Below, piece after piece: positions 20,146 to 32,324 of a stretch of 34,013 bases of DNA. The DNA lies in the NCBI GenBank assembly GCA_964632105.1, contig CAZWFH010000003.1:1-34013 (forward strand). The letters run 5' to 3'. The stretch's first letter is position 1; every line of letters starts with the position of its first letter. Made by a program: the position numbers and the translations under genes. The stretch is from an uncultured Atribacterota bacterium. GTDB taxonomy: Bacteria; Atribacterota; Phoenicimicrobiia; Phoenicimicrobiales; Phoenicimicrobiaceae. The notes beneath the pieces were generated by a model. It was not told where the DNA came from. It did not search any database and worked only from the letters and a program-made list of their open reading frames with translations.

Positions 20146-20973
20146 ATGGAAAAAATACGTCCCAATTACCCTATAAAAGTTTTAGATAAATCCCTCTCCA
20201 TTCTCGAGACCATGCTTCGACAGGGTTCTGCTATGAGCATGACTGAAATCAGTGAAAAATTAGGACTCTATCCCAGCACCACTCACCGTATATTAGATAC
20301 TTTAAAACATTGGGGATATGTGGAGCAAGAACCCAATAATCAGAGATACCAGCTAGGTCTAAAAGTTATAGAATTAGGCATGGCTAAACTTCACCAAATG
20401 GACCTGGCAAGAGAGGCTACTCCTTATCTAAAAGAGCTAGTAAATCAGTGTAACGAAACTGTCCATTTAGGAGTTCTGGAAGAGGGAGAAGTTATGTATT
20501 TAGCCAAAGAGGAGTCTTCTCAAACAATAAGAATGATCTCTTACGTAGGGAAAAGAGCTCCTCTTCACTGTACGGCATTGGGGAAAATACTATTAGCCTA
20601 TATGTCAGAAGAAGAAAGAGAAAAAATCTTAGAAGATAGAGAACTTCCTCGCCTTACCGAGAAGACCATCACTGATAAAAGGGAATTAGAAAAAGAACTT
20701 GGTAAAGTAAGAGAACAGGGTTTTGCCTTAGATAGAGAAGAAAACGAAAAGGATGTTCGCTGTGTAGCTGCCCCCATCAGGAATCATCAAGGAAAAGTTA
20801 TAGCTGCTATTAGTATTTCAAGCCCTATTTTCAGGATAGATAAAAATGTACAAAATAATCTAAAAAAAGTTCTTATAGAGACAAGCGAAAAAATATCTAA
20901 AAGATTGGGATATAAAGAAAAATCGCAAAAAGAGGAAAAGAAGGAGGTGGAAACTAGAGAAAAATTTATTTAG
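20146..20973 (+). CDS. kdgR: IclR-family transcriptional regulator (KdgR-like pectin/hexuronate regulator)
   Basis: N-terminal wHTH (MSMTEISEKLGLYPSTTHRILDTLKHWGYV) and C-terminal IclR effector domain (GFALDREENEKDVRCVAAPI). The symbol is inferred from context only. Confidence 0.7.
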   Translation: MEKIRPNYPIKVLDKSLSILETMLRQGSAMSMTEISEKLGLYPSTTHRILDTLKHWGYVEQEPNNQRYQLGLKVIELGMAKLHQMDLAREATPYLKELVNQCNETVHLGVLEEGEVMYLAKEESSQTIRMISYVGKRAPLHCTALGKILLAYMSEEEREKILEDRELPRLTEKTITDKRELEKELGKVREQGFALDREENEKDVRCVAAPIRNHQGKVIAAISISSPIFRIDKNVQNNLKKVLIETSEKISKRLGYKEKSQKEEKKEVETREKFI

Positions 20974-21075
20974 TGGGGTTAAATAGACAAAATTACTGGC
21001 TTAATGATCAGAATATTATTATTTTTAAGGAGAAAGAATATGTCCCTCAAAGCTATAATAAATTCCAGTAGATAG

Positions 21076-21135
21076 ATGAATTTAGTAAATAAAGTAGCTA
21101 TAGTTACTGGTACAGGTCGAGGTATAGGCAAACTT
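21076..21135 (+). pseudogene. Stub of an SDR gene (first ~20 codons only)
   Basis: MNLVNKVAIVTGTGRGIGK is a canonical SDR N-terminus. It then runs into AT-rich non-homologous sequence and a stop. Confidence 0.5.
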
Positions 21136-21196
21136 ATTTTTAAGAACTTCATATTTATTTTTTATTATTTATTTTAAACAGGAGAGGTTTGTAATT

Positions 21197-21888
21197 ATGG
21201 AAAGTCCCATTCGTGTTGGAATTGTTGGTAGTCGTTTTGCTGCTGAGTTTCATTATACCGCCTATCAGCGGGTAACTGGTATATAGGTAAGAGTTGTCAT
21301 CCTTTATCAGCTATACTTTATCTGAAACAGGTAGAAGGAATTGCTCGTAATGGCAAGGCAATTCGTCCGAAAGCAGTTAGTGCTCGAACTCATAAGATAA
21401 CCCGAAACCCAAGATTTATCGATAAAGGTTTTCTAAGAACCGATTATGAGGATATCGAGGATTACGGTAATATTCACGTAATTTTTGATGATGGGATGAT
21501 TGCTGATATTTTTGCTTCAGAATTGGTGATGGGAGGTGTGCACAACTGGCTTGAAATCTTTGCCAATAATCATCATAGGACTCGTTGCAACCTGAGTCCT
21601 ACTAATGCAATGGAACTTTACAATCCACAAGAGGAACAGTTGGCAGATGTTTATGTGATGGAGAAAATCGGAACCAAACAAGGTTGGTCTAACCCTTCAC
21701 CAGATGAAAACTGGATGTTTGGCTATCCTCAGGAGATTTAAGACTTTATGGAGGCAATTGCTACTAATCGGGAACCTAAGTCCGGAATGTTGGCAGCAAG
21801 TGATACAGTAAGCGTTCTTTATGCTGCCTACCTTTCAGCAGAGCGTAAAGGGGAGGAAGTTGAGATACCGCTCGATTCTTCGTTCTAA
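21197..21888 (+). pseudogene. Gfo/Idh/MocA oxidoreductase remnant with internal deletion and in-frame stop
   Basis: The N-terminus MESPIRVGIVGSRFAAEFHYTAYQRVTGI stops at TAG 21284-21286. The frame then switches to GNWYIGKSCHPLSAILYLKQ..., so about 130 aa of the Rossmann domain are missing. A TAA at 21739-21741 is in frame between GYPQEI and DFMEAIATNREP. The homologous end is at 21888. Confidence 0.7.
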
Positions 21889-22173
21889 GTATAAGAGCCT
21901 ATAGAAATTCCCGCAGTTTTTATAGAAAAATTCTCCCTTAGATTGATTTACTTATACAATGTTTAGAGAAAATTTTACTTTATCTTAAAATTTCGCTAAA
22001 ATATTTAAGATTAGTAAAAAGTTTTAGTAAGTGCATTTGTAAGTATATTAAGGGCATTCTACACCCTTCTTTAAAATTCTTTAAATATTAGGTTAATTTA
22101 CTAAAAAATAAAGGTTATACAAAAATAAAATGTGATAAAAAAGTATTTATAAGTCCTTCCAAAGGAGATTATT

Positions 22174-23631
22174 ATGAAAGATAAAGATGGCTTTTTAAGT
22201 AAAGATTGGTTATTAGATACAACTGAAGGAATAAAATTATATCATGATATCGCTGTTCCCCTAAGAAAGGAAGTTGGAATTATTGATACTCACACTCATC
22301 ATAATTTAAGACAGATTGTAGAAAATGAACCTTTCCCCAATATTTGGAGGGCTGAAGTTCTGGAGACAAGAGAAGAATATAAAAATTGCGATCATTATAT
22401 TATTCAATTGGCAGCAAAGCTCCCCGGTTTCTCTCAAGCTTTAGCCAGGGATCCTCAAATTTCAGATTATGATAAATGGGTAGCCTTGTGCAAGGTATTT
22501 CCTCATCTCGAAGGCAATCATGTTCATCAATGGATGCATTTGGATTTAAAGAGGATGTTTGGAATCGAGGAATTATTGAGTGCAGAGACCGCAGATAGAG
22601 TATGGAAAAAAGCAAATGATTGTTTAAAACAAAAGGACATGTTGCCCCAGGCAATACTTAAAAGAGTTAGAGCGAGGATTATCTGTACGACCGATGATCC
22701 AGTAGATGATTTATACTATCACAAAATGGCTAATAACATAGAAGGTATAAATTTTTTGCCTACTTTTAGACCTGATGCTTATTGTAATATCTTTATTGAT
22801 AAATGGAAATCGAATGTGGAAAAAATCTGTCAATTAACTGGACAAGAAACAACTCTTAAAGGTCTTGTGGAAGCTTTAAGAATAAGACATACTTATTTTG
22901 CCGAAAGGGGAGCAAAGGCAAGTGATCATGGTTTGTTGGAGCCTTATGGTTTAACAATTAGTCAGAAAAGAGCTGAGGAAATTTTCCAACAAGCTTGTAA
23001 TAAGGGAGAAAAATTTAGTCTCAGATCACCAGAGACTAAAGAATTTATTTCTTATATGATGCATCAATTCTGTGCTATGAATCAAGAAAAAGGTATGGTT
23101 ACCCAAATCCATTATGGAGCAATCAGAAATGCTAATGAATATTTATTTAAAAATTGGGGGACTGATGTAGGAGGTGATATTTCAACAGAAAATGTAAATA
23201 TTATTGAAAACTTACAACCTTTGTTAACGAGATTTTTTAGTGGAGAAGATAAAAATCAAAGTCATTTAATATTGTATCCAATGAACCAGATATTTGCCCA
23301 TACTAATGTGATGTTAGAAAGAGCTTTTCCTAACGTTCATTCTGGTTTCCCTTGGTGGCATAATGATAATCCTTATATTATGGAACAATATTTGTTGCAT
23401 ACTGCAAACTCTTCTTTACTTACTTCAAGTGGTGGTCCAGTCTGTGATGGAAGGAAGATTTTGTCGGAAGGAAGTAGATTTGAGGTTTTTGATAGAATAA
23501 TATGCAAAGCTGTAGGAAATCTTGTTTCGAGCGGACAGATGTCCTATAATGGAGGGGTTAGAACAACAAAAGCGTTGATGTGTGAAAATCAAATGCGGTT
23601 ATTCAATTTAAAAGGAGAAATTAATGAATAA
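22174..23631 (+). CDS. uxaC: Glucuronate/galacturonate (uronate) isomerase
   Basis: AAAGGAGA RBS. FLSKDWLLDTTEGIKLYHDIA...IIDTHTHHNL matches the UxaC N-terminal metal-binding HxH region. Length is 485 aa. Confidence 0.8.
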   Translation: MKDKDGFLSKDWLLDTTEGIKLYHDIAVPLRKEVGIIDTHTHHNLRQIVENEPFPNIWRAEVLETREEYKNCDHYIIQLAAKLPGFSQALARDPQISDYDKWVALCKVFPHLEGNHVHQWMHLDLKRMFGIEELLSAETADRVWKKANDCLKQKDMLPQAILKRVRARIICTTDDPVDDLYYHKMANNIEGINFLPTFRPDAYCNIFIDKWKSNVEKICQLTGQETTLKGLVEALRIRHTYFAERGAKASDHGLLEPYGLTISQKRAEEIFQQACNKGEKFSLRSPETKEFISYMMHQFCAMNQEKGMVTQIHYGAIRNANEYLFKNWGTDVGGDISTENVNIIENLQPLLTRFFSGEDKNQSHLILYPMNQIFAHTNVMLERAFPNVHSGFPWWHNDNPYIMEQYLLHTANSSLLTSSGGPVCDGRKILSEGSRFEVFDRIICKAVGNLVSSGQMSYNGGVRTTKALMCENQMRLFNLKGEINE

Positions 23632-25123
23632 GCAGGGAATTTTAAAGTATTTTAATAAATATTATTGGGATAGGTATATTGTTTACACTTCTTCTATAAA
23701 AAAGTTAGAGAAAGAAAATTATTTTTTTATGGTAAAAGATAAAAAGAAAAAGTATCTTGTAGTATTTGCTGTAGATGCTGTTGCGCAAAAATTTGAAGGT
23801 AGCGTTTTAGAAGAAAAAGAAGTAAACCAGAATGAATTGATCATCAAGATATGTAGTTTAAACCATAATAATCTTACTCTACTACGAGAAATATTCCCCC
23901 ATCTCAATCCTTCTTTTTGTGGTCTTAAACCATCTTTTGGTACCGGAGACCGTTTAGGAATAGCTACTCCTGCTCATCTTCAGGCCTTTAAAGGAAAAGA
24001 TATTTTCCCCATTTTAGCTCAGCAATCAGTTAGAGAGATGTCCAGAATGGAAAGAAATTGGCAAAAAGTTTTAGATGATGCAATTTGGGGTTGTTTTGAG
24101 GCAGGTTACATTGGTCCTTTTGGGGCTGATGCAGATCATGTAAAAGAAATTAAGGAGTTAAAAGAAGCAGCAGATTGCGGCTTCACCATGTTTACTTTAG
24201 ATCCTTCTGATTTTATAAGAAATGATATTGAAAGGTTAAGCAAACAAGAATTAGAACAACTTTATAAACAGATTTCTAATGGTAAAGAATTAGAAAATTT
24301 ATATTTAAATAAGAAGTATAAAATCGGTGAGCAAGAATTAATATTCGATGAAGAATCATTGAAAGAAATTATACTTACTTATTCTGAAGCCTTAAATCAT
24401 GTGGTGAAATGTTATAAATTTTTAAAGGATTATAAAAAAAATAATTTTGATTTAGAAATATCTGTAGATGAAACTCCCACAGTTACATCTCCTTTAGCGC
24501 ATTTATTTATTGTTTTGGAACTACAAAGAAGGGGAGTAGATTTTCAGAATATCGCTCTTCATTTCTTGGGAGATTGGCAAAAAGGAATAGAATATATAGG
24601 TAATGTAAAGGAATTTGCCAGGGAATTTTCTTTACACGCAGCTATCGCAAAAAATATCGGAGGATACAAACTTTCTCTTCACACCGGAAGTGATAAGTTT
24701 TCTGTTTATCCTATTTTTTCTCAGGAGACAGACGGTCTTTGCCATATAAAAACTGCCGGGACCAGCTGGTTAGAGGAAGTAAAAGTGGTTGCCATGAAAG
24801 ACCCGTCTCTTTATCGAGAGATTCATCGATTTGCTTTGGAGAATTTTGCAAAAGATAGAGCATCTTATAATTTAACTACTGACCTTTCTCGTATACCCGA
24901 TATAGATACAATTGCAGATGATGAATTGGTAAATTTTTTCAAACAGAATGACTCTCGACAGCTTATCCATATAACTTATGGTTCTATTCTAAGAGCAAAG
25001 GATGATGAAGGAAAATATATCTTTAAAGATAGAATCTACAAAATATTATTTGAGTATGAAGAAGACCATTATCGGGAACTTTCTAATCATATTAGGAAAC
25101 ATTTGGAGCTTTTAAATAAATAA
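23624..25123 (+). CDS. uxaE: Tagaturonate/fructuronate epimerase-like protein (UxaE family candidate)
   Basis: Overlaps uxaC by 8 nt (ATGAATAA). About 500 aa with FGTGDRLGIATPAH and GADADHVK blocks. The synteny uxaC, this gene, SDR, gnd mirrors the Thermotoga maritima TM0438-TM0441 neighbourhood as I recall it. Confidence 0.55.
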   Translation: MNKQGILKYFNKYYWDRYIVYTSSIKKLEKENYFFMVKDKKKKYLVVFAVDAVAQKFEGSVLEEKEVNQNELIIKICSLNHNNLTLLREIFPHLNPSFCGLKPSFGTGDRLGIATPAHLQAFKGKDIFPILAQQSVREMSRMERNWQKVLDDAIWGCFEAGYIGPFGADADHVKEIKELKEAADCGFTMFTLDPSDFIRNDIERLSKQELEQLYKQISNGKELENLYLNKKYKIGEQELIFDEESLKEIILTYSEALNHVVKCYKFLKDYKKNNFDLEISVDETPTVTSPLAHLFIVLELQRRGVDFQNIALHFLGDWQKGIEYIGNVKEFAREFSLHAAIAKNIGGYKLSLHTGSDKFSVYPIFSQETDGLCHIKTAGTSWLEEVKVVAMKDPSLYREIHRFALENFAKDRASYNLTTDLSRIPDIDTIADDELVNFFKQNDSRQLIHITYGSILRAKDDEGKYIFKDRIYKILFEYEEDHYRELSNHIRKHLELLNK

Positions 25124-25130
25124 ATATTTA

Positions 25131-25229
25131 GGTAGGAAGTATTCAGAAGCCAGAAGCCAGAAGCCAGAATGAGAGATAAGATAGATAGTATCTCATATAT
25201 CGAATATTAAAGAACAGATAACGAATAGA
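25131..25229 (+). repeat. 7-nt periodic array (AGAAGCC x3, then degenerate units)
   Basis: In register: GGTAGGA AGTATTC AGAAGCC AGAAGCC AGAAGCC AGAATGA GAGATAA GATAGAT AGTATCT ... It starts 8 nt after the uxaE-like stop. Confidence 0.7.
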
Positions 25230-25257
25230 GTAGGGGCGTATTGCAATACGCCCCTAC
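25230..25257 (+). repeat. Perfect 28-nt GC-rich palindrome GTAGGGGCGTATTG/CAATACGCCCCTAC
   Basis: The two halves are exactly complementary. It lies 6 nt upstream of the AAGGAGG RBS of the next gene, with no T-run. Confidence 0.85.
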
Positions 25258-25277
25258 AACTCAAGGAGGAAAAATAA

Positions 25278-26102
25278 ATGGAGGAAAATTTGAAGATGTT
25301 TAGCCTTGAAGGCAAAATAGCGGTAATTACCGGAGGTGCTGGGATTTTAGGTTCTGCTATTGCCCGAGGGTTGGGTAAAGCGGGAGCTAAGATAGCCCTA
25401 TGTGATATTGTAAATGCCGATGAAGTTGCCCAAGAATTAAAATCAGAAGGGATAGAAGCTAAAGGTTATTATTTAGATGTGATGGATATTAAAAAGATTA
25501 AGATCTGTCGAGATGAAATAATGAAAGATTTTGGCAGGGTTGATATCTTACTTAATGCCGCCGGAGGCAATACAAAAGGGGCGACTACCTCAGAAGAATT
25601 AAAATTTTTTGACCTTCCTCTTTCCGCTTTAGAGAAGGTGGTTGGACTTAATCTTTTTGGAGGAGCTATACTTCCTTCCCAGGTTTTCGGGAAAATTATG
25701 GTGGAAAATAAAGAAGGGGGTTCTATTATTAATATTTCTTCTATGAACGCCTTTCGTCCACTTACCAGAATTCCCGGCTATTCAGCTGCCAAGGCAGCGG
25801 TAAGTAATTTTACCCAATGGTTGGCAGTCCATTTTGCCCAAGAATATAATAAAAACTTGCGAGTCAATGCAATTGCTCCGGGATTTTTTCTTACTGCCCA
25901 AAATCGTTTTTTACTTACTAATGAGGATGGCAGCTTGACACCCAGAGGCAAAACTATAATCGCTCACACTCCTATGGATAAATTTGGTGACCCGGAAGAT
26001 TTAATCGGAGCGTGTGTTTGGTTGGCCTCTGATGCCTCAAAATTTGTAACCGGAATCATTGTTCCTGTAGACGGAGGATTTAGTGCGTTTTCGGGAGTCT
26101 AA
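25278..26102 (+). CDS. SDR-type D-mannonate oxidoreductase / fructuronate reductase candidate (YjmF/UxuB-like)
   Basis: GKIAVITGGAGILGSAIARGL, NAAGGN, SSMNAF...YSAAKAAVSNFTQWLAV, APGFFLTAQNRFLL and PVDGGFSAFSGV follow my recollection of the SDR mannonate oxidoreductase subfamily. Context supports the call. Confidence 0.55.
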   Translation: MEENLKMFSLEGKIAVITGGAGILGSAIARGLGKAGAKIALCDIVNADEVAQELKSEGIEAKGYYLDVMDIKKIKICRDEIMKDFGRVDILLNAAGGNTKGATTSEELKFFDLPLSALEKVVGLNLFGGAILPSQVFGKIMVENKEGGSIINISSMNAFRPLTRIPGYSAAKAAVSNFTQWLAVHFAQEYNKNLRVNAIAPGFFLTAQNRFLLTNEDGSLTPRGKTIIAHTPMDKFGDPEDLIGACVWLASDASKFVTGIIVPVDGGFSAFSGV

Positions 26103-26104
26103 TT

Positions 26105-26139
26105 CGTATCGCGTATCGCGTATTGCGTATTGCGCTTGG
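26105..26139 (+). repeat. 7-nt tandem array CGTATCG x2, CGTATTG x2, CGCTTGG
   Basis: Begins 3 nt after the SDR stop. The opening TTCGTATC is shared with the array at 30983. Confidence 0.8.
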
Positions 26140-26142
26140 TAG

Positions 26143-26191
26143 AGACACGGCGTGCCGTGTCTTCTCTGTTCATCACGGCAACGCCGTGATG
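26143..26191 (+). repeat. Two adjacent GC-rich hairpins sharing a CACGGC/GCCGTG core
   Basis: AGACACGG-CGTG-CCGTGTCT (26143-26162) and CATCACGGC-AAC-GCCGTGATG (26171-26191). Confidence 0.8.
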
Positions 26192-26282
26192 CTACTGATA
26201 ACTGAAAACTGATTATCTTTATCTAAAAACTAAAAACGAAAAACTATAAACCTATTTTTTTACACTAACGACTAAATAAGGA
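26192..26282 (+). repeat. 7-nt periodic array (nnACTGA x3, then AAACnAA-type units)
   Basis: CTACTGA TAACTGA AAACTGA TTATCTT TATCTAA AAACTAA AAACGAA AAACTAT AAACCTA ... It runs into the gnd RBS. Confidence 0.65.
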
Positions 26283-26291
26283 GGAATGTAA

Positions 26292-27782
26292 ATGAAAAAA
26301 CAAAATATTGGATTAATTGGCTTGGGTCCTATGGGACAAAATTTAGTTTTAAATATAGAAAGCAAAGGTTATAAGGTAGCAGTATTTAATAGAACAAGTA
26401 GTAAGACTGAAAAATATACCGAAGAAATGGCTAAAGGAAAAAATATATTACCTACCTATTCTTTAGAGGAATTTGTAAATTCTTTAGAAACTCCTCGAAA
26501 AATAATACTACTTGTAAAGGCAGGTAAAGCTGTAGATAGCTTTATAGAAAAACTTATTCCCTTATTAGATAAAGGAGATTTAATTATTGATGCTGGAAAT
26601 TCTTTTTTCAAAGATACGATAAGACGCAATAAAGAGTTAAATGATTTAGGATTATTATTTATCGGAACAGGCATTTCTGGAGGAGAAGAAGGAGCCTTAA
26701 AAGGGCCGGCTATAATGCCTGGCGGACAGAAAGAAGCTTATGCTCTGGTAGAAGATATATTCAAAAAGATTGCGGCCAAAGCCTACGATGGTGTTCCTTG
26801 TGTATCCTATATTGGTCCAGATGGAGCTGGCCATTTTGTTAAGATGGCACATAATGGTATCGAATATGGGGATATGCAATTAATTGGAGAATGTGTTTGG
26901 GTATTTAAGAATGCTTTGAATATGAGTTCGGAAGAAATTGCAGGGATTTTAACCGGTTGGAATAGCAGCGATGATGTTCTTCGCTCTTATTTAGTAGAAA
27001 TAACCGGAGAAAGTATGAAAGAAAAAGATAAAAAAACTGGCGAGTATCTGGTTGACCGAACAGCTGATATTACCAGAATGAAAGGGACAGGGACCTGGAC
27101 AGTACAAAGCGCTTTGGAATTGTTAGTCCCTATTCCTACTATTACTGCTGCGGTTTTCTCACGAGAGATGTCTCAAGATAAAGATTTGAGACTGAAAGTA
27201 TCTAAAAGATTATCAACTTTCAAGGAAAAATATGTGGGAGAAAAAGAACGGTTTATCGAAATTGCCCATGATGCCCTGTATCTGGCTAAGATTTCTTCTT
27301 ACGCCCAGGGTATGGCTTTATTACAGGCTGCTTCCAAGGAATATAAATGGAACCTTAATTTAGGAGAAATTGTTAAGGGATGGCGAAGTGGGTGTATAAT
27401 TCGGGCTCAGTTTTTAGATGAAGTTACCAAGGCCTACGAAAAAAATCCAGAAATACCCAATCTTTTAACTGCTCCTCGATTCGCTGAAGTGGTTAAACAA
27501 TATCTTAACAAATTAGCCAACTTTATCGAGATTGCTCATTGGGTAAAAGTACCTGCTCCGGCTATGGATAATGCTTTTGATTATATTCTTCAACTGGTCA
27601 GTCCGGTAATGATTTCTGCCCAGATATCAGCCCTACAACGAGATTATTTTGGAGCCCATGGTTACTTTAAACTCAAAGGATTAGATGATCCGGAAGTAAT
27701 AACTACACCAGATGGAAAAATGAGAGAGTTTCATACTGAATGGATGCTACCCGGACGACCGGAAGAGGAATGGACTGAGTAA
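26292..27782 (+). CDS. gnd: 6-phosphogluconate dehydrogenase, decarboxylating
   Basis: IGLIGLGPMGQNLVLNIESKGY Rossmann motif, GISGGEEGALKGPAIMPGG, HFVKMAHNGIEYGDMQLI and QRDYFGAHGY. Confidence 0.9.
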   Translation: MKKQNIGLIGLGPMGQNLVLNIESKGYKVAVFNRTSSKTEKYTEEMAKGKNILPTYSLEEFVNSLETPRKIILLVKAGKAVDSFIEKLIPLLDKGDLIIDAGNSFFKDTIRRNKELNDLGLLFIGTGISGGEEGALKGPAIMPGGQKEAYALVEDIFKKIAAKAYDGVPCVSYIGPDGAGHFVKMAHNGIEYGDMQLIGECVWVFKNALNMSSEEIAGILTGWNSSDDVLRSYLVEITGESMKEKDKKTGEYLVDRTADITRMKGTGTWTVQSALELLVPIPTITAAVFSREMSQDKDLRLKVSKRLSTFKEKYVGEKERFIEIAHDALYLAKISSYAQGMALLQAASKEYKWNLNLGEIVKGWRSGCIIRAQFLDEVTKAYEKNPEIPNLLTAPRFAEVVKQYLNKLANFIEIAHWVKVPAPAMDNAFDYILQLVSPVMISAQISALQRDYFGAHGYFKLKGLDDPEVITTPDGKMREFHTEWMLPGRPEEEWTE

Positions 27783-27862
27783 GTGATGAGTGATGAGTAA
27801 TAAGTGACCAGTAATAAGCAGTAAAGAAACGACCAAGAATAAGAAGCAGGGAGTGAGTAGCA
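27783..27862 (+). repeat. Left heptamer array and inverted-repeat arm (GTGATGA GTGATGA GTAATAA GTGACCA GTAATAA ...)
   Basis: Eleven 7-nt units lie between the gnd stop and the ATG at 27863. Positions 27783-27800 are the exact reverse complement of 28259-28276. Confidence 0.85.
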
Positions 27863-28222
27863 ATGAGCAAAGAAATAAGGAATCATAAAGATTTGGAAGT
27901 TTGGAAAAAAAGTATAGATTTGGTCAGTAATATTTATAAAATTACTGAGTCTTTTCCAAACAAAGAACTTTATGGTTTAACAAATCAAATAAGAAGAGCA
28001 GCGGTTTCTGTTCCTTCAAATATTGCTGAAGGTGCTGCAAGAAACTCTAAAAAAGAATTTATTCAATTTTTATACATAGCCTTAGGATCATTATCTGAAC
28101 TCGAGACGCAAATTATTATTGCAAGCAGGTTAGAATATTTAAATAATTTAGATACTTTATCAGAGGACCTTAAATTTGTACAAAAATTGATAAATGGATT
28201 AATATATTATTTAAAAAAGTAA
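27863..28222 (+). CDS. Four-helix-bundle protein (23S rRNA intervening-sequence protein family)
   Basis: 119 aa. LEVWKKS...FPNKELYGLTNQIRRAAVSVPSNIAEGAAR.SKKEFIQFLYIALGSLSELETQ is the hallmark pattern of this family. Confidence 0.85.
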   Translation: MSKEIRNHKDLEVWKKSIDLVSNIYKITESFPNKELYGLTNQIRRAAVSVPSNIAEGAARNSKKEFIQFLYIALGSLSELETQIIIASRLEYLNNLDTLSEDLKFVQKLINGLIYYLKK

Positions 28223-28237
28223 TTTTAAATACAATTT

Positions 28238-28286
28238 TTCCTTATTTCTTGTTATTTGTTACTCATCACTCATCACTCATTACTAT
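28238..28286 (+). repeat. Right heptamer array and inverted-repeat arm (TTCCTTA TTTCTTG TTATTTG TTACTCA TCACTCA TCACTCA TTACTAT)
   Basis: Reverse complement of the left array (18 nt perfect, about 14/21 beyond). It ends just before the RBS AGAGGGAGG. Confidence 0.85.
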
Positions 28287-28307
28287 ATTTAAAGAGGGAG
28301 GATTAAT

Positions 28308-29585
28308 GTGCTATCCATTGAAAATCTCCAGGGAGAATTAACTAAAGAACAGTTAAAAGAAATCGTAAAAGAAAGTCTGAAAAATATTTCTTCGGTAAAA
28401 AAAGTTCTTTTAATTCATCCTGATTATACCCGGACAGACTTTACCGATAAATTAATTCCCCTTATATATCAAGAGCTAAAAAATAAAGGAATGACTCAAA
28501 TTGATTCTTTAAACGCCGGTGGTACTCACCGAGCAATGACGGAGAAGGGAATTCGGGTTAAGTTAGGACTTTCCAACCAGATTAATTTTACTCATTTTTA
28601 TAATCATGAATATAACGACCCTCAACAACTGGTGACTGTAGGTGAGATTTCTGCTTCTTTTGTAGAAAAAATGACTAAAGGCGAGTTGTCACAATCTATT
28701 CCGGTAGTGGTAAACAAGCTGGTTACAGAAGATTATGATTTGATTATTGCCTTAAGTGGAACCTTGCCCCATGAAGCCGCTGGTTATGCGGGAGGTTTAA
28801 AGGTGTTTTTACCGGGTATCTCCGGACCAGAGGTGATAGATTTATTCCACTGGGCAGCGGTGCTTGTAGGAATCCCCCAGATTATTGGCACTGTCAATAA
28901 TTCTGCACGAGAAGTTATAAATAAAGGTTCTTCTTATGTTTTTAATAAAATAAAAGTGCCAGTCCTCTTATTTAATATGATCTTTGAAGAAAAAGAACAT
29001 CAGGTAATACCAAAAGGTCTATACATAGGTGTGGGGTTCGATGGTTTTATCGAGGCCTATAAACAAGCAGCAAAAGCGAGCTCTCAACTCCATGTAGTTT
29101 ATATAGATAAACCTCTTGAGTGTGCTGTCCAGGTTATTGATAAAAGTTATGATGAGATTTGGACTGCCGGGAAAGGTTCTTATAAACTGCAGAGTCCTGG
29201 AGTTATGGCTCCAGGTGGGGAGATTATTATTTATGCACCTCATATTAATTGTTTTCATTCTCGCATAGAGATGGACTTTGCCTTAAGACAGATAGGATAT
29301 CATTGCAAAGATTATGTAAAAAAATATTTGAAATTAAATCCCGATTTTAGTAAAAATATAGCTGCTCATGTTATAAATGTAAGAGGGGCGGGAAGTTTTG
29401 ATGTTAATTCCTGGAAAGAAGAATTTGACTTTAAAGTTACTTTGACTACCGGAATTCCTCAAGAAGTTTGTAAATCAGTCGGATTGGGTTATCGTAATCC
29501 TGATTCAATTCGTAAAGAAGATTTTATTGGTCCAGAAAAACTTTGGATACAAAATGGAGGAAAATATCTTTACAAAATAAAATAA
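28308..29585 (+). CDS. LarA-superfamily (nickel-pincer-nucleotide dependent) 2-hydroxyacid racemase/epimerase homologue; D-mannonate/D-gluconate 2-epimerase candidate
   Basis: GTG start 7 nt after GGAGG. DYTRTD and GGTHR blocks are present. The H155-x9-K165-x15-H181 spacing is identical to LarA His174/Lys184/His200, and H100 is the candidate His108 equivalent. Confidence 0.65.
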   Translation: MLSIENLQGELTKEQLKEIVKESLKNISSVKKVLLIHPDYTRTDFTDKLIPLIYQELKNKGMTQIDSLNAGGTHRAMTEKGIRVKLGLSNQINFTHFYNHEYNDPQQLVTVGEISASFVEKMTKGELSQSIPVVVNKLVTEDYDLIIALSGTLPHEAAGYAGGLKVFLPGISGPEVIDLFHWAAVLVGIPQIIGTVNNSAREVINKGSSYVFNKIKVPVLLFNMIFEEKEHQVIPKGLYIGVGFDGFIEAYKQAAKASSQLHVVYIDKPLECAVQVIDKSYDEIWTAGKGSYKLQSPGVMAPGGEIIIYAPHINCFHSRIEMDFALRQIGYHCKDYVKKYLKLNPDFSKNIAAHVINVRGAGSFDVNSWKEEFDFKVTLTTGIPQEVCKSVGLGYRNPDSIRKEDFIGPEKLWIQNGGKYLYKIK

Positions 29586-29666
29586 AATATCGAGAGATTC
29601 CAAATTTAATCTGAGCAATCTTCTTATAATCGATGTAATAAATTATAAAAGTAGGAAGTTAAACAA

Positions 29667-30980
29667 ATGAAAAATGTAGTTATCGCACAATCAGGCGGCC
29701 CCACCTCGGTAATAAATAATAGTATCAGAGGAGTGATTGACGAATTAATTTCCTTTAAAAAAGTTGATAAAATATATGGAGCGAGGATGGGTATTCTTGG
29801 GGTTTTAAAAGAAGAATTAATAGACATCTCTTCTCAGGAGCCCCAGCAAATAGCCTTATTAGCAGAAACTCCATCTGCGGGAACAATAGGTAGTTGTAGG
29901 TATAAAATAAAAAATGATGAGGATTTAATCCGTATTGTCGAGGTCTTTAAAAAACATAATGTGGAATATTTCTTTTATTGCGGAGGCGGAGACTCCATGG
30001 ATACAGCTAACAAAATAAATAAATTAGCCCAAAAAGAAAATTTAGAACTGATTTGTACCGGTATCCCCAAAACCATTGATAATGATGTAGGAGGACCATT
30101 GCAAACTGATGGAACATTCGCAGTATGTGATCATGACCCGGGGTATGGGAGTGTAGCCCGGAATTTAGCTATTAATATACTGGAAGCAAATGAAGAGAAT
30201 AAAGCGAGTTATACCAGTGATCCTGTTTTAGTAATCGGCGTAATGGGGAGAAAAATTGGTTTTATTCCCGCTGCAGCACGGTTGGCTGATCCCAAAAGAG
30301 AAATTCCTTTATTAATGATTCTTCCTGAATCTCTATCCAAAGATGATTATCAGAGTAATTTAGAATTTATTAGCGAAAAAGTTAATGAAAAATTAAAAAA
30401 ACAGAAAAGATGTATTGTGGTTATAGGAGAAGGAGTAAATGTAGGGGATTTGGGAATACTGCGAGATAGCTTTGGACATGCTCAATTCAGCGCTTCTGAG
30501 AAAACTGTAGAACAGGTACTTACTAATTACCTTAACGGAATAGACAGGAAAGATAGTCAGGGAAGAGCGCAAAGTAGATTAATAGGTAAAGGAATAGCTC
30601 GCTCGGAAAGGCCGGGTACTCGTCAGAGGAGAGAGATTGCCTATGTATCTGAAATTGATAGGGATGAGGCCTATCAGGTGGGAGTATATGCCGCCAAAAT
30701 TGCTTTATCGGGGGAAAATGGTTTTATGTCGACCATTGTAAGAAATCCTGATTTACCTTATAAAGTAAATTATGATAAAATACTTTTAGATACTGTAGCT
30801 AATTCAGAAAGGGAATTCCCTAAAAAATGGATTGCTTCCAATAGAGTAGATGTAACTGATGAATTTATAAATTGGGCTTTGCCTTTAATCGGAGGTCCGC
30901 TTCCTGAATTTGCAAAATTTAGAAAAATATATGTTCCCAAAAAATGTGAAGAATATATACCAGTGGAGTATAGAAAGTAA
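29667..30980 (+). CDS. Phosphofructokinase-family (PfkA fold) kinase, PPi-type signature; substrate and donor not certain
   Basis: QSGGPTSVINNSIRG, CGGGDSMDTA, GIPKTIDNDV (Lys as in PPi-PFKs), VMGRK, VVIGEG and FGHAQ. Length is 437 aa. Confidence 0.6.
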   Translation: MKNVVIAQSGGPTSVINNSIRGVIDELISFKKVDKIYGARMGILGVLKEELIDISSQEPQQIALLAETPSAGTIGSCRYKIKNDEDLIRIVEVFKKHNVEYFFYCGGGDSMDTANKINKLAQKENLELICTGIPKTIDNDVGGPLQTDGTFAVCDHDPGYGSVARNLAINILEANEENKASYTSDPVLVIGVMGRKIGFIPAAARLADPKREIPLLMILPESLSKDDYQSNLEFISEKVNEKLKKQKRCIVVIGEGVNVGDLGILRDSFGHAQFSASEKTVEQVLTNYLNGIDRKDSQGRAQSRLIGKGIARSERPGTRQRREIAYVSEIDRDEAYQVGVYAAKIALSGENGFMSTIVRNPDLPYKVNYDKILLDTVANSEREFPKKWIASNRVDVTDEFINWALPLIGGPLPEFAKFRKIYVPKKCEEYIPVEYRK

Positions 30981-30983
30981 AAT

Positions 30984-31039
30984 TCGTATCTCGTATCTCG
31001 TGAATCGTATTTCGTAAAAAAGAAGTCCAGGTGCCAGAA
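30984..31039 (+). repeat. 7-nt array TCGTATC x2, TCGTGAA, TCGTATT, TCGTAAA, AAAGAAG, TCCAGGT, GCCAGAA
   Basis: Begins 4 nt after the PFK stop. The last unit, GCCAGAA, is the unit repeated at 25145-25165 in a different register. Confidence 0.8.
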
Positions 31040-31130
31040 GTAGGGGCTCGATTTATCGAGCCCGCTAATCGTAGGACAGGCGTCTCGCCTGTCTATTAAA
31101 TAACCCGGGGCTGATAAATCCGCCCCCTAC
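31040..31130 (+). repeat. GC-rich composite element bounded by GTAGGGGC ... GCCCCCTAC, with two internal hairpins
   Basis: Termini match the palindrome at 25230-25257. The internal hairpins are GGGCTCGAT-TT-ATCGAGCCC (31044-31063) and GACAGGCG-TCT-CGCCTGTC (31075-31093). Confidence 0.75.
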
Positions 31131-31256
31131 ATAAAAAACAATACATTATCTGAAAAAGTTTTGAATTTTGAATTATGGTTTTTAATTTTTCGCTGTAAGT
31201 TTTTAGTTTGATAAATAATTTATTCTATACGCTAAATGCTACCCGCTATATGCTAT
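31131..31256 (+). repeat. 7-nt periodic array (TTTTGAA x2, TTATGGT, TTTTAAT, TTTTCGC ... ACGCTAA ATGCTAC CCGCTAT ATGCTAT)
   Basis: Eighteen units stay in a constant register up to the RBS of the HAD gene. Confidence 0.7.
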
Positions 31257-31280
31257 AATTTAAAGAAAAGAGGAGAAAGA

Positions 31281-32324
31281 ATGGCCTTGCCTAGACTTAC
31301 AGAAAAGCAGATAAAAGAAGATTCGGAACAACAATTAAGAAATTTTCGTAGAACCAAGGATTTTTTGGTAGCTATCGATACCGATGGCTGTGTTACTGAT
31401 AATATGAATGGAAAACAGATGTTAATCTTTCACCCCCAATTTATGGAATTTTATCAGTTGTGGGGGATTGAGTCTTATTTTAGAGAAGTTGCTGAATACT
31501 ATAATCTATTTTCTGTGGATAGAGGCTGTAATAGGTTTATTGCCATTCAACTTACTCTTACTGCTCTTCAAAGCAGAAAAGATGTTCAACAAGTTTTACA
31601 GGAAAGGCATATAAAATTACCTAATATAAAACCCCTAAACGAATATATTGCCTATACAAAAGAGAATAAATTAGGATTAGGTAATCCAAGTTTGGAGGAA
31701 TATTTAAATCAAAATCCTCTTGATTTGTCTTTATATAAACTTTTAGGTTGGAGTGAAGCAGTAAACAGAACTTTTCCTCATATTTCTGCCAAGATTCCTC
31801 CCTTTGACAAAGTTAAAGAATGTTTAAAATTAATGTCTCAATATGTGGATATATTAATTGTTTCTAAAACTCCATATGCAGATTTAGCAAATTACTGGGA
31901 AGATCAGGGAATTGCTCAATATGTTCAGATTATTGCTGGCCAGGAAATGGGTTCAAAGGGACACCATATCGAAGTAGCTAAAAAGGCAGGTAAGTATGAA
32001 GACGAACAGGTGTTAATGATTGGTGATGGAGGAGGTGATTTAAAAGCGGTTAAGATAAATAAGGGACTTTTTTATCCTACTCCACCTGGTCAAGAACAGG
32101 AAGCCTGGGATAATTTTCCTGATGCATTTCAACGATTTATAAAGAGAGAATATAAAGGAAAATTTGAAGATAAACTTTTAGAGGCATTTAATAAAGCACT
32201 ACTTACCTCTCCTCCTTGGCAGGAAAATGGTTATGACCACATAAGATCCTATAGGGAAAAACAGGAGATAAGAAAAGCGTTGTATGCTAAATTTAATCCC
32301 CAGGGGAGACTTCTTATTTTATAA
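31281..32324 (+). CDS. HAD-superfamily hydrolase (probable sugar-phosphate phosphatase); specificity unknown
   Basis: ATG 31281 (8 nt after AGGAG) is preferred over the track start 31236, which lies inside the heptamer array. HAD motifs are I DTDGCV, II VSKTP and IV GDGGGD. Confidence 0.6.
   Translation: MALPRLTEKQIKEDSEQQLRNFRRTKDFLVAIDTDGCVTDNMNGKQMLIFHPQFMEFYQLWGIESYFREVAEYYNLFSVDRGCNRFIAIQLTLTALQSRKDVQQVLQERHIKLPNIKPLNEYIAYTKENKLGLGNPSLEEYLNQNPLDLSLYKLLGWSEAVNRTFPHISAKIPPFDKVKECLKLMSQYVDILIVSKTPYADLANYWEDQGIAQYVQIIAGQEMGSKGHHIEVAKKAGKYEDEQVLMIGDGGGDLKAVKINKGLFYPTPPGQEQEAWDNFPDAFQRFIKREYKGKFEDKLLEAFNKALLTSPPWQENGYDHIRSYREKQEIRKALYAKFNPQGRLLIL

Follow-up and report, generated by a model that had tools for sequence, protein, structure and literature searches.

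The locus and its heptamer arrays

The stretch of DNA analysed here (the window; 34,013 nucleotides of contig CAZWFH010000003.1, assembly GCA_964632105.1, from an uncultured Atribacterota bacterium) carries a pectin/galacturonate utilisation locus whose genes all lie on the + strand. They encode members of GH28 and GH4, an ABC transporter, IclR, UxaC, UxaE, an SDR protein and proteins resembling 6-phosphogluconate dehydrogenase (6PGD), LarA (of the nickel-pincer hexonate-epimerase-like kind), PFK and HAD. The nearest genomes are Atribacterota metagenome-assembled genomes (MAGs), with 87-92% identity in the 6PGD-like protein. Between 25124 and 31280, spacers of this operon are occupied by tandem arrays of 7-nucleotide (nt) units, by GC-rich hairpins with a GTAG tag that resemble repetitive extragenic palindromes (REPs), and by a cassette in which two such arrays enclose a small gene of the S23p/IVP family, the family carried by intervening sequences (IVSs) of 23S rRNA. 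No terminator-like sites were found on the + strand of the array-bearing spacers and promoter-like sites in them were not in excess over shuffles, so that co-transcription of the operon is plausible. The homologous loci and contigs compared below, from Atribacterota, Bacteroidales, metagenomes and IMG/VR, are designated by L numbers.

Tandem Repeats Finder (TRF) detects nine period-7 arrays in these spacers (25144-25169, 26105-26134, 26194-26212, 26223-26251, 27782-27807, 28261-28284, 30984-31016, 31159-31189 and 31221-31257) and a single further one in the whole window, an AT-only TTTATTT run at 21154. Identity at lag 7 reaches 0.42-0.54 in five spacers (25124-25277, 26103-26291, 27783-27862, 28223-28307 and 30981-31280) versus 0.26-0.32 in dinucleotide-preserving shuffles (z = 4.6-5.8; observed value reached by 0 of 500 shuffles), and no other lag stands out by autocorrelation in any of them. 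Ten other spacers of the window give lag-7 z values of -1.1 to 1.2, among them 29586-29666 of the same operon. A previous sequence-only reading of this DNA had described non-coding period-7 arrays in four consecutive spacers and nothing similar in other intergenic regions. The arrays are borne out, as are their non-coding nature and the lack of a signal in the ten other spacers; the spacers number five when the small open reading frame (ORF) is counted as dividing two of them, and they are not strictly consecutive, since the LarA-like/PFK-like spacer is array-free. The recurrence of units between spacers, also claimed by that reading, is exact: AGAAGCC stands at 25145, 25152 and 25159, with GCCAGAA additionally at 31033, CGTATTG at 25237, 26119 and 26126, and TTCGTATC only at 26103 and 30983.

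Seven contigs assembled independently, each 99% identical to the window, show no difference at all in the array spacers; elsewhere six of them differ from it by 25-106 substitutions or indels and the 1.9-kb L007 by 4. An eighth contig, L008 (1.1 kb), is 100% identical over the SDR gene and parts of both flanking spacers. Copy-number changes suggestive of phase variation were sought among these 99%-identical strains and none was found, all differences lying in coding tracts. Since the spacers are invariant in seven independent assemblies, the arrays are neither artefactual nor hypervariable at this scale.

An IVS-type cassette in an mRNA operon

The ORF at 27863-28222 (+ strand) encodes a four-helix-bundle protein of 119 amino acids (aa) that belongs to PF05635 (138.9 bits, cut-off 33.8; E = 8.6e-41) and TIGR02436 (137 bits, cut-off 24). 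It also matches PDB entry 2GSC (E = 8e-30), which was deposited with five chains and has been described as a homopentamer (PMC4990558). The gene sits between the 6PGD-like and LarA-like genes and not in a 23S rRNA gene. On its left lies an array of the type GTGATGA GTGATGA GTAATAA GTGACCA GTAATAA (27782-27829, + strand) and on its right the complement of this array, ending in GTTACTCATCACTCATCACTCATTACT (28237-28284, + strand). With 48 nt at 79% complementarity the two constitute the longest inverted repeat in 25100-31300; they close the minimum-free-energy fold of 27770-28310 (z = -5.2) and their duplex is predicted by RNAduplex at -50.7 kcal/mol (z = -6.5). The arrays on both sides of the ORF are thus the inverted arms of one promoter-less cassette, built like the ORF-containing IVSs of 23S rRNA and placed in an mRNA operon. 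The sequence-only reading had rightly stated that the arrays flank either GC-rich hairpins or, once, an ORF, and had overlooked that the two ORF-side arrays belong together as arms.

Six independent cassettes of this kind were found in Atribacterota. In each of them (A)GTRAYNA arrays form the left arm and TNRTYAC arrays the right one, and the RNAduplex z values range from -2.6 to -6.9. They are distributed over two loci, the 6PGD/LarA-like site (the window, L099, L107 and L112) and a site between RtcB and SerS (L089 and L111), where the copies show 86-91% protein identity. The IVP gene is missing from the 6PGD/LarA-like site in ten relatives. Derivatives without a complete gene also exist: the PFK/HAD spacer of L012 holds an internally deleted cassette in which the two arms still enclose the leader and the first 12 codons (85% identity) but the rest of the gene is gone, and L099 carries an ORF-less copy. 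Compared with the other Atribacterota copies, the IVP ORF has a dN/dS of 0.09-0.33, which indicates purifying selection, and it is co-oriented with the host genes in every locus that has gene calls. At the second site (L089 6907-9900) the RtcB gene upstream of the IVP gene holds an intein (PF14890), and the orthologue in L111 (485 aa) does not.

GTAG-tagged hairpins embedded in the arrays

The arrays outside the cassette surround GTAG-tagged REP hairpins, and the two together form mosaics similar to bacterial interspersed mosaic elements (BIMEs). Nearly all GC-rich intergenic hairpins of the window begin with GTAG or end with CTAC. Six GTAG hairpins are present, all in intra-operon spacers, either singly or as inverted doublets (26139-26195; 31040-31130). 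Across 189 kb of Atribacterota DNA, 29 instances of GTAG plus hairpin were collected and 20 of them lie within 60 nt of an array. The tag is invariant over 19 distinct variants, and compensatory changes are seen at all eight stem pairs, with 92% of the alignment cells paired; the covariation score of the stem is 0.89, a value attained by none of 500 shuffles (0.27), and controls slid along the sequence stay at or below 0.20. The presence of six copies in 34 kb is no more than suggestive of a high copy number in the genome.

In several copies, moreover, the tag continues the phase of the heptamers that precede it. This is seen in L009 (2040-2099) and L013 (9300-9362), where the junction reads AGTAATTT|GTAGGGG, and in the window, where the reverse complement of 26171-26212 reads TCAGTTT TCAGTTA TCAGTAG|CATCACGG. 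Because the tag keeps the 7-nt phase, the arrays have the appearance of sequence 5' of the REP tag that was copied in tandem, and they may be footprints.

Taken in order along the window, the first of these spacers opens with a CAGAAGC array (equivalent to CCAGAAG) of 3.7 copies at 25144-25169 (+ strand; TRF, 100% matches; lag-7 z of the spacer 4.7), followed on the same strand by a degenerate tail that runs towards about 25200. Behind it stands a perfect 28-nt palindrome, GTAGGGGCGTATTG/CAATACGCCCCTAC, at 25230-25257 (no strand assigned; 100% complementary), which carries both GTAG and CTAC, provides the dominant stem in the RNA fold of the spacer and has no T-run 3' of it on the + strand. 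In the second spacer, a CGTATCG array of 4.3 copies (26105-26134, + strand, TRF) begins 2 nt past the stop codon of the SDR gene, and an array of the same unit is found in the orthologous spacer of L012. It leads into a hairpin, GTAGAGACACGGCGTGCCGTGTCTT (26139-26163, + strand), of which variants with compensatory changes exist in L017 and L112. An inverted hairpin (26170-26195, - strand; reverse complement GTAGCATCACGGCGTTGCCGTGATGA) completes a doublet similar to a BIME or to a REPIN, a unit of two inverted REPs. The CTAC tag of this second hairpin is at the same time the first unit of the array CTACTGA TAACTGA AAACTGA (26192-26212, + strand; located as an exact string, TRF 26194-26212), and a CTAAAAA array of 4.1 copies (AAAAACT type; 26223-26251, + strand, TRF) follows; this last module has further copies in L107, in L112 and, within the 6PGD/LarA-like spacer, in L010 and L017.

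In the PFK/HAD spacer, a TCGTATC array of 4.7 copies (30984-31016, + strand, TRF) starts 3 nt past the PFK stop codon and is followed by two + strand hairpins, GTAGGGGCTCGATTTATCGAGCCCG at 31040-31064, whose copies in L009 and L013 occupy three different spacers, and GTAGGACAGGCGTCTCGCCTGTCT at 31071-31094, with copies of 97-100% identity and opposite orientation in L010, L017 and L018. A third hairpin at 31106-31130 (- strand) is inverted with respect to the first (arms 76% complementary). A degenerate TTTTGAA array of 4.6 copies (31159-31189, + strand; TRF, 72% matches), the weakest of the set, precedes a TATGCTA array of 5.3 copies (TACGCTA type; 31221-31257, + strand, TRF), which is the complement of TAGCGTA arrays in related genomes and is 90% identical to L015 4774-4813.

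As to the placement of the arrays relative to genes, which the sequence-only reading had put at 1-8 nt past the stop codon on the left and right up to the ribosome-binding site (RBS) on the right, three of the left arrays do begin at 0-3 nt, the first clean array begins 21 nt past the stop, and on the right a gap of 11-23 nt separates array and RBS. The drifted stretches with which that reading prolonged the arrays (e.g. 25170-25229) are weak. Many units hold stop codons (G TGA TGA, G TAA TAA, TAG TATA), both at 27783-27830 and in the post-stop arrays of L010-L017; with a period of 7, any three units therefore put stops in all three frames just past the upstream gene.

Reshuffled modules across Atribacterota

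With one detector applied to loci recovered by the same query, 35 period-7 arrays were counted in 120 kb of Atribacterota loci versus 71 in 1.17 Mb of Bacteroidales loci, and periods other than 7 are rare save for some period-8 arrays. The orthologous spacers of ten Atribacterota genomes, whose comparison the sequence-only reading had proposed, do contain arrays. They measure 27-500 nt and are mosaics of similar modules in reshuffled order, namely heptamers (TAGTATA, GTATCGC, TAGCGTA, GTAATNA, CAGRAGC and their complements), octamer arrays TGGTTAGC / TAACCAAC in inverted pairs, and GC-rich hairpins. The period-8 arrays lie at L012 1356-1454, L014 8886-8929, L015 4691-4771, L016 2850-2878 and L017 1258-1296, where they form inverted pairs capable of hairpin formation; the window has none.

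Modules of the window are also found at 90-100% identity in non-orthologous spacers of other genomes. The TCGTATC array of the PFK/HAD spacer, for example, corresponds to a 92-100% identical module in the 6PGD/LarA-like spacer of L010, L012, L016 and L018, and the hairpins of 31040-31097 recur in three different spacers in both orientations. A second operon with arrays is the archease-RtcB-SerS operon of L089. On the sense strand, a GTA-type core is present in 43 of 63 arrays (189 kb) and its complement, the TAC type, in 13. Since modules are reshuffled between spacers, they are dispersed elements and not local accidents, and their recurrence in non-orthologous spacers together with the 43-versus-13 strand skew argues for dispersal with an orientation bias and not for slippage alone. 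The arrays are thus part of a lineage-wide set of modular dispersed repeats in the spacers between co-directional Atribacterota genes. The earlier suggestion of a family akin to miniature inverted-repeat transposable elements (MITEs) came close, given these non-orthologous modules and the ORF-less and internally deleted cassettes.

IVP genes and repeat arms in other phyla

The association of IVP genes with tandem-repeat arms extends beyond Atribacterota. In the Bacteroidales control loci, all four IVP genes are bordered, on one side or on both, by short tandem arrays with periods of 6, 7, 7 and 8; the flanks are clearly inverted arrays in three of the four, and L083 has a clean array on the left only. 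Four genes in 1.17 Mb of Bacteroidales sugar-acid loci give no sign of enrichment, as judged without a genome-wide background rate. A scan of metagenomes with one Bacteroidales IVP yielded 45 loci at 48-83% identity, nearly all with GGCNNA hexamers on the left and their complement on the right, and a scan of IMG/VR with the window protein yielded 15 loci at 42-67% identity, nearly all with inverted arrays (units AGTGGAG, GGTAAGA, GGCAGAA, CAGTTGC, AGGGTGT, GAGAACT and others). Scans of viral contigs with two Bacteroidales IVPs returned 0 and 1 loci. In L081 (18585-18800, a Bacteroidetes MAG), the right IVP arm consists of more than 30 copies of AATTATC and the left one of about five copies of the complement.

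Altogether, inverted complementary flanks (z >= 3) are present in 44 of 53 IVP loci versus 15 of 250 control genes, and a tandem array stands on each side of the gene in 27 of the 53 versus 3 of the 250. The loci were drawn from Atribacterota, Bacteroidales, metagenomes and IMG/VR and represent at least 16 lineages of units. Most flanks consist of tandem units of 6-8 nt that are specific to a lineage; the arms remain complementary though their sequences differ entirely between lineages, and the sense strand of the left arm is purine-rich in 13 of 16 unit lineages. That IVP genes lie within inverted tandem-repeat arms is, accordingly, well supported.

The converse, that all heptamer arrays are IVP arms, was ruled out: 679 kb of IMG/VR contigs with TAACTGA x3 arrays contain one IVP gene, at 1.27 kb from the nearest array. 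In L187 (2453-2905), and also in L189, L202 and L216, TAACTGA x3 arrays in direct orientation, spaced by 432 nt, stand on either side of an ORF of about 120 aa on the minus strand, which does not match the IVP profile. In the Bacteroidales loci L059 (6994-8597), L076 (5529-7261) and L124 (1001-2348), IVP cassettes lie directly upstream of a LarA-like gene and cluster with SDR and 6PGD homologues; a LarA-like neighbour shared by Bacteroidales and Atribacterota cassettes could be either a coincidence or an old linkage. IVP genes have been counted among the CRISPR-associated genes (PMC3936711), and the literature notes them scattered inside cas loci and between housekeeping genes. No account of IVP genes outside rRNA flanked by tandem-repeat arms was found in the papers searched.

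Relation to known repeat systems

The closest counterpart of the cassette is the IVS of 23S rRNA in Leptospira and Coxiella burnetii. Both carry a PF05635/TIGR02436 gene that is promoter-less, co-oriented with the host transcript and enclosed by terminal inverted repeats forming a long stem. In C. burnetii, the 28-bp terminal stem around the S23p ORF is cut by RNase III in vitro and the 5' arm contains two to three tandem GACAGAT heptamers, variable in number between strains, with cleavage at the first repeat (PMC4990558); tandem heptamers in the 5' arm are thus another shared trait. The rRNA elements occupy helix 25 or 45 of 23S rRNA, whereas the window cassette lies in a protein-coding operon; its arms consist almost wholly of 6-7 tandem units and are longer and less perfect (48 nt at 79%) than the nearly perfect 28-bp stem of Coxiella; and the cassette ORF is under purifying selection, whereas that of Coxiella is decaying. 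Cleavage by RNase III, observed in vitro for the Coxiella IVS, would apply to the Atribacterota cassette by analogy.

The hairpins, in turn, agree with the GTAG-REP superfamily (Di Nocera 2013, PMC3733652), whose members have an unpaired tag, lie between co-directional genes and frequently form inverted doublets, and with REPINs (Bertels & Rainey 2011, PMC3116915) and BIMEs (see also Nunvar 2010, PMC2817692). Like them, the window hairpins are GC-rich palindromes (22-26 nt, within the 20-40 bp of the GTAG-REP definition) with an unpaired, invariant GTAG at one end and stems that vary by compensatory change, they lie downstream of coding regions between co-directional genes, often as inverted doublets, and their copies are scattered over spacers and genomes. 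They differ in being embedded in tandem heptamer arrays that run in phase into the tag. A cognate REP-associated tyrosine transposase (RAYT) was not found in the available sequence, in which no genome-wide search was made. Neither GTAG-REP mosaics nor an IVS-type cassette outside rRNA was found reported for Atribacterota, a phylum not compared here with the eight phyla of PMC3733652.

Tandem intergenic heptamers are an older subject. The short tandemly repeated repetitive (STRR) sequences of cyanobacteria were described around 1990, and their units in heterocystous species, STRR1-3, are presumably CCCCAGT, TTGGTCA and CAACAGT. The likeness to STRR noted by the sequence-only reading holds in form, as the window arrays are tandem heptanucleotides in intergenic DNA; membership was rejected, since none of these three units occurs in tandem in the window and the host belongs to Atribacterota, not to the cyanobacteria. 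Similar in form are also the TAACTGA repeats (MacGregor 2015, PMC4679880) and the MTYCTGA repeats of Geobacter, found as paired sites of five units (PMC2700814). STRR, TAACTGA and MTYCTGA arrays share with those of the window an intergenic position near start or stop codons and arrays of 2-6 copies mixed with related units. The array at 26192-26212 recalls the TAACTGA repeats and ends 79 nt before the start codon; it was not assigned to them, as it contains one exact TAACTGA (26199) between CTACTGA and AAACTGA and no tandem exact copies. The window differs from all three systems in the coexistence of many unit families. Its arrays are tied to GTAG hairpins and to the IVP cassette, links absent from the TAACTGA and heptamer literature found, and the TAACTGA arrays of IMG/VR contigs are not adjacent to IVP genes.

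Two further comparisons deserve mention. Nostoc carries small dispersed repeats (likewise abbreviated SDR), said to have been described by Elhai and colleagues in Genome Research in 2008, which reportedly form hairpins, are mobile, often lie inside tandem heptamer arrays and show nested insertions; phylum and sequences differ from those of the window. Avd, a protein of diversity-generating retroelements (DGRs) and, as bAvd, a pentameric four-helix bundle, is a distant homologue of the cassette protein, which scores 22 bits with the bAvd Pfam model and 25.6 bits with NF033474, both below cut-offs. A DGR identity was rejected on these scores, which lie far below the cut-offs, and on the lack of a reverse transcriptase match in a scan of 20 window ORFs, no search being made for template or variable repeats.

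Other features of the window

The remaining observations concern the locus itself. At 1547-2217, the gene of an IclR-family regulator is broken up into the overlapping ORFs 1547-1900 and 1882-2217, probably as a pseudogene with a frameshift; the window also has an intact IclR gene, at 20146-20973. The following 1.2 kb or so (20974-22173), upstream of UxaC, are gene-poor, with an 81-aa ORF that has no NCBIfam match and a 46-aa ORF, and give no period-7 signal. A search of Rfam over the whole window at E <= 1 returned nothing relevant and no rRNA. Where the 99%-identical contigs depart from the window, the changes crowd into three short coding tracts of UxaC and the 6PGD-like gene (22178-22512, 26401-26678 and 26909-27105), which resemble recombination tracts.

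Competing explanations and a proposed mechanism

The arrays are real and are best filed as an IVS-type cassette outside rRNA, with heptamer arms, beside GTAG-REP mosaics, for which a function may be proposed as follows. We somewhat favour a reading in which these modular repeats act on the mRNA, the spacers being co-transcribed, the cassette arms processed and the hairpins stabilising the resulting segments. The spacers would be transcribed within a polycistronic mRNA, and the cassette arms would pair as a duplex of about 45 bp that RNase III might cut as it does in the 23S IVS. Such cleavage would separate the upstream and downstream mRNA segments and free the mRNA of the small gene, and the GC-rich REP hairpins could block 3' exonucleases and determine how stable each segment is. 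A protective role against 3' exonucleases is attributed to the hairpins because no T-runs follow them, and the sequence-only suggestion of mRNA segment stabilisers is a reasonable reading of their role. The arrays themselves would grow and drift through slippage in 7-nt steps, and shared units would supply homology for the exchange or deletion of modules between spacers. The co-orientation of the ORF and the purine-rich left arm speak in favour of a role at the RNA level.

Several observations weigh against this RNA-level reading. Mismatches within the arms show no excess of G·U (56 G·U versus 53 A·C, p = 0.85), so that the arms could equally be terminal inverted repeats of a DNA element. In the three REP-containing spacers, a pairing of left with right arrays was looked for and rejected, as the folds leave the arrays mostly single-stranded, and the stem model therefore covers the cassette arrays only. 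No target-site duplication was seen by eye, with no formal search made, and no transposase, RAYT or reverse transcriptase was identified in the 20 window genes scanned with Pfam. As to sampling, the array-rich spacers come mostly from one operon and its orthologues, and the 53 IVP loci behind the link between gene and arms are not phylogenetically independent, 30 of them coming from one lineage.

The strongest competitor, possible and still distinctly less probable than the mRNA reading, is that the arrays are terminal inverted repeats or excision footprints of MITE- or REPIN-like elements moved in trans at the DNA level, for example by a RAYT, with the ORF as a passenger and any RNA effect incidental. 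The inverted arms together with the ORF-less and internally deleted derivatives of L099 and L012 would suit MITE-like elements, of which no parent transposase was identified, and the similar copies at the RtcB/SerS locus and the equal frequency of G·U and A·C mismatches fit as well. So do the invariant GTAG with covarying stems, as in REPs mobilised by RAYTs (PMC3116915), and the phasing of the tag with the preceding heptamers. On the other side, neither a transposase nor a RAYT is annotated in the fetched loci with gene calls or present among the window genes scanned, about half of the 189 kb being unscanned, and the duplications that insertion might leave were not seen. The purine/pyrimidine asymmetry of the arms relative to the ORF and the purifying selection acting on the latter also argue against this reading, and its strict co-orientation with host genes would be unexpected for a pure DNA transposon.

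A broader proposal, which we regard as speculative and rather doubtful, holds that PF05635 genes are the cargo of a widespread class of cassettes with inverted, lineage-specific 6-8-nt arrays, of which the 23S IVSs would be the rRNA subset. By recognising its own arms, in RNA or in DNA, the pentamer would govern how the cassette is processed or moved, and solo arms and ORF-less copies would seed part of the arrays.

That the arrays are a mutational by-product, simple-sequence repeats made by slippage in unconstrained spacers and devoid of function and mobility, appears improbable. Heptanucleotide repeats are stated, in a passage of PMC4679880 referring to Mrazek 2007, to be the most abundant class of long simple-sequence repeats in most genomes, and such an origin would agree with the drift of units within arrays, the dominance of period 7 in unrelated Bacteroidales loci, the arms devoid of G·U bias and the variable presence of arrays between lineages. 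It accounts poorly, however, for multi-unit modules shared at 90-100% identity between non-orthologous spacers of different genomes, for the constant copy number in seven assemblies that differ elsewhere, for arms that stay complementary across IVP lineages, with a GGCNNA unit kept over 48-83% protein identity, and for ties of the arrays to GTAG hairpins and IVP genes far above control rates. Placement with an orientation bias (43 GTA-type arrays against 13 of TAC type) and dispersal of identical modules, with which it is incompatible, were both found in the loci examined.

Equally unlikely is the notion of protein landing pads, in which the units would be candidate multivalent RNA or DNA sites for an oligomeric regulator of the translation or stability of neighbouring genes, either the pentameric IVP or a protein of the S1, Csp or CsrA type. 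Arrays of typically 4-6 units and a five-chain homologue, 2GSC, described as a homopentamer (PMC4990558), are consistent with it, as are unit sequences and lengths that co-vary with the IVP lineage and right arrays that stop 11-23 nt short of the RBS. Translational regulators were in fact proposed by MacGregor for TAACTGA arrays upstream of start codons (PMC4679880). Array lengths from 3 to more than 30 units count against such pads, and so does the position of the arrays: most of those in the window are not adjacent to an IVP gene, and the TAACTGA x3 contigs hold just the one gene mentioned above. Finally, an assembly or sequencing artefact, also raised by the sequence-only reading, has a negligible probability in view of the identical spacers in seven independent contigs and of homologous arrays in 15 other genomes.

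Significance

Intergenic tandem heptamer arrays such as STRR and the TAACTGA repeats have so far no accepted explanation, and the four-helix-bundle family PF05635 has no known function (PMC4990558). The family is related to the DGR protein Avd, and thousands of relatives were retrieved in one search made here. Since many of the IVP homologues are on very short contigs, the arrays may break assemblies. The locus described here ties together tandem-repeat arms, an IVS-type cassette outside rRNA and GTAG REP hairpins, and IVP genes are linked to repeat arms in several phyla. Were the arms processed, these cassettes would cut polycistronic mRNAs into segments, which would be a means by which a selfish element could alter operon expression.

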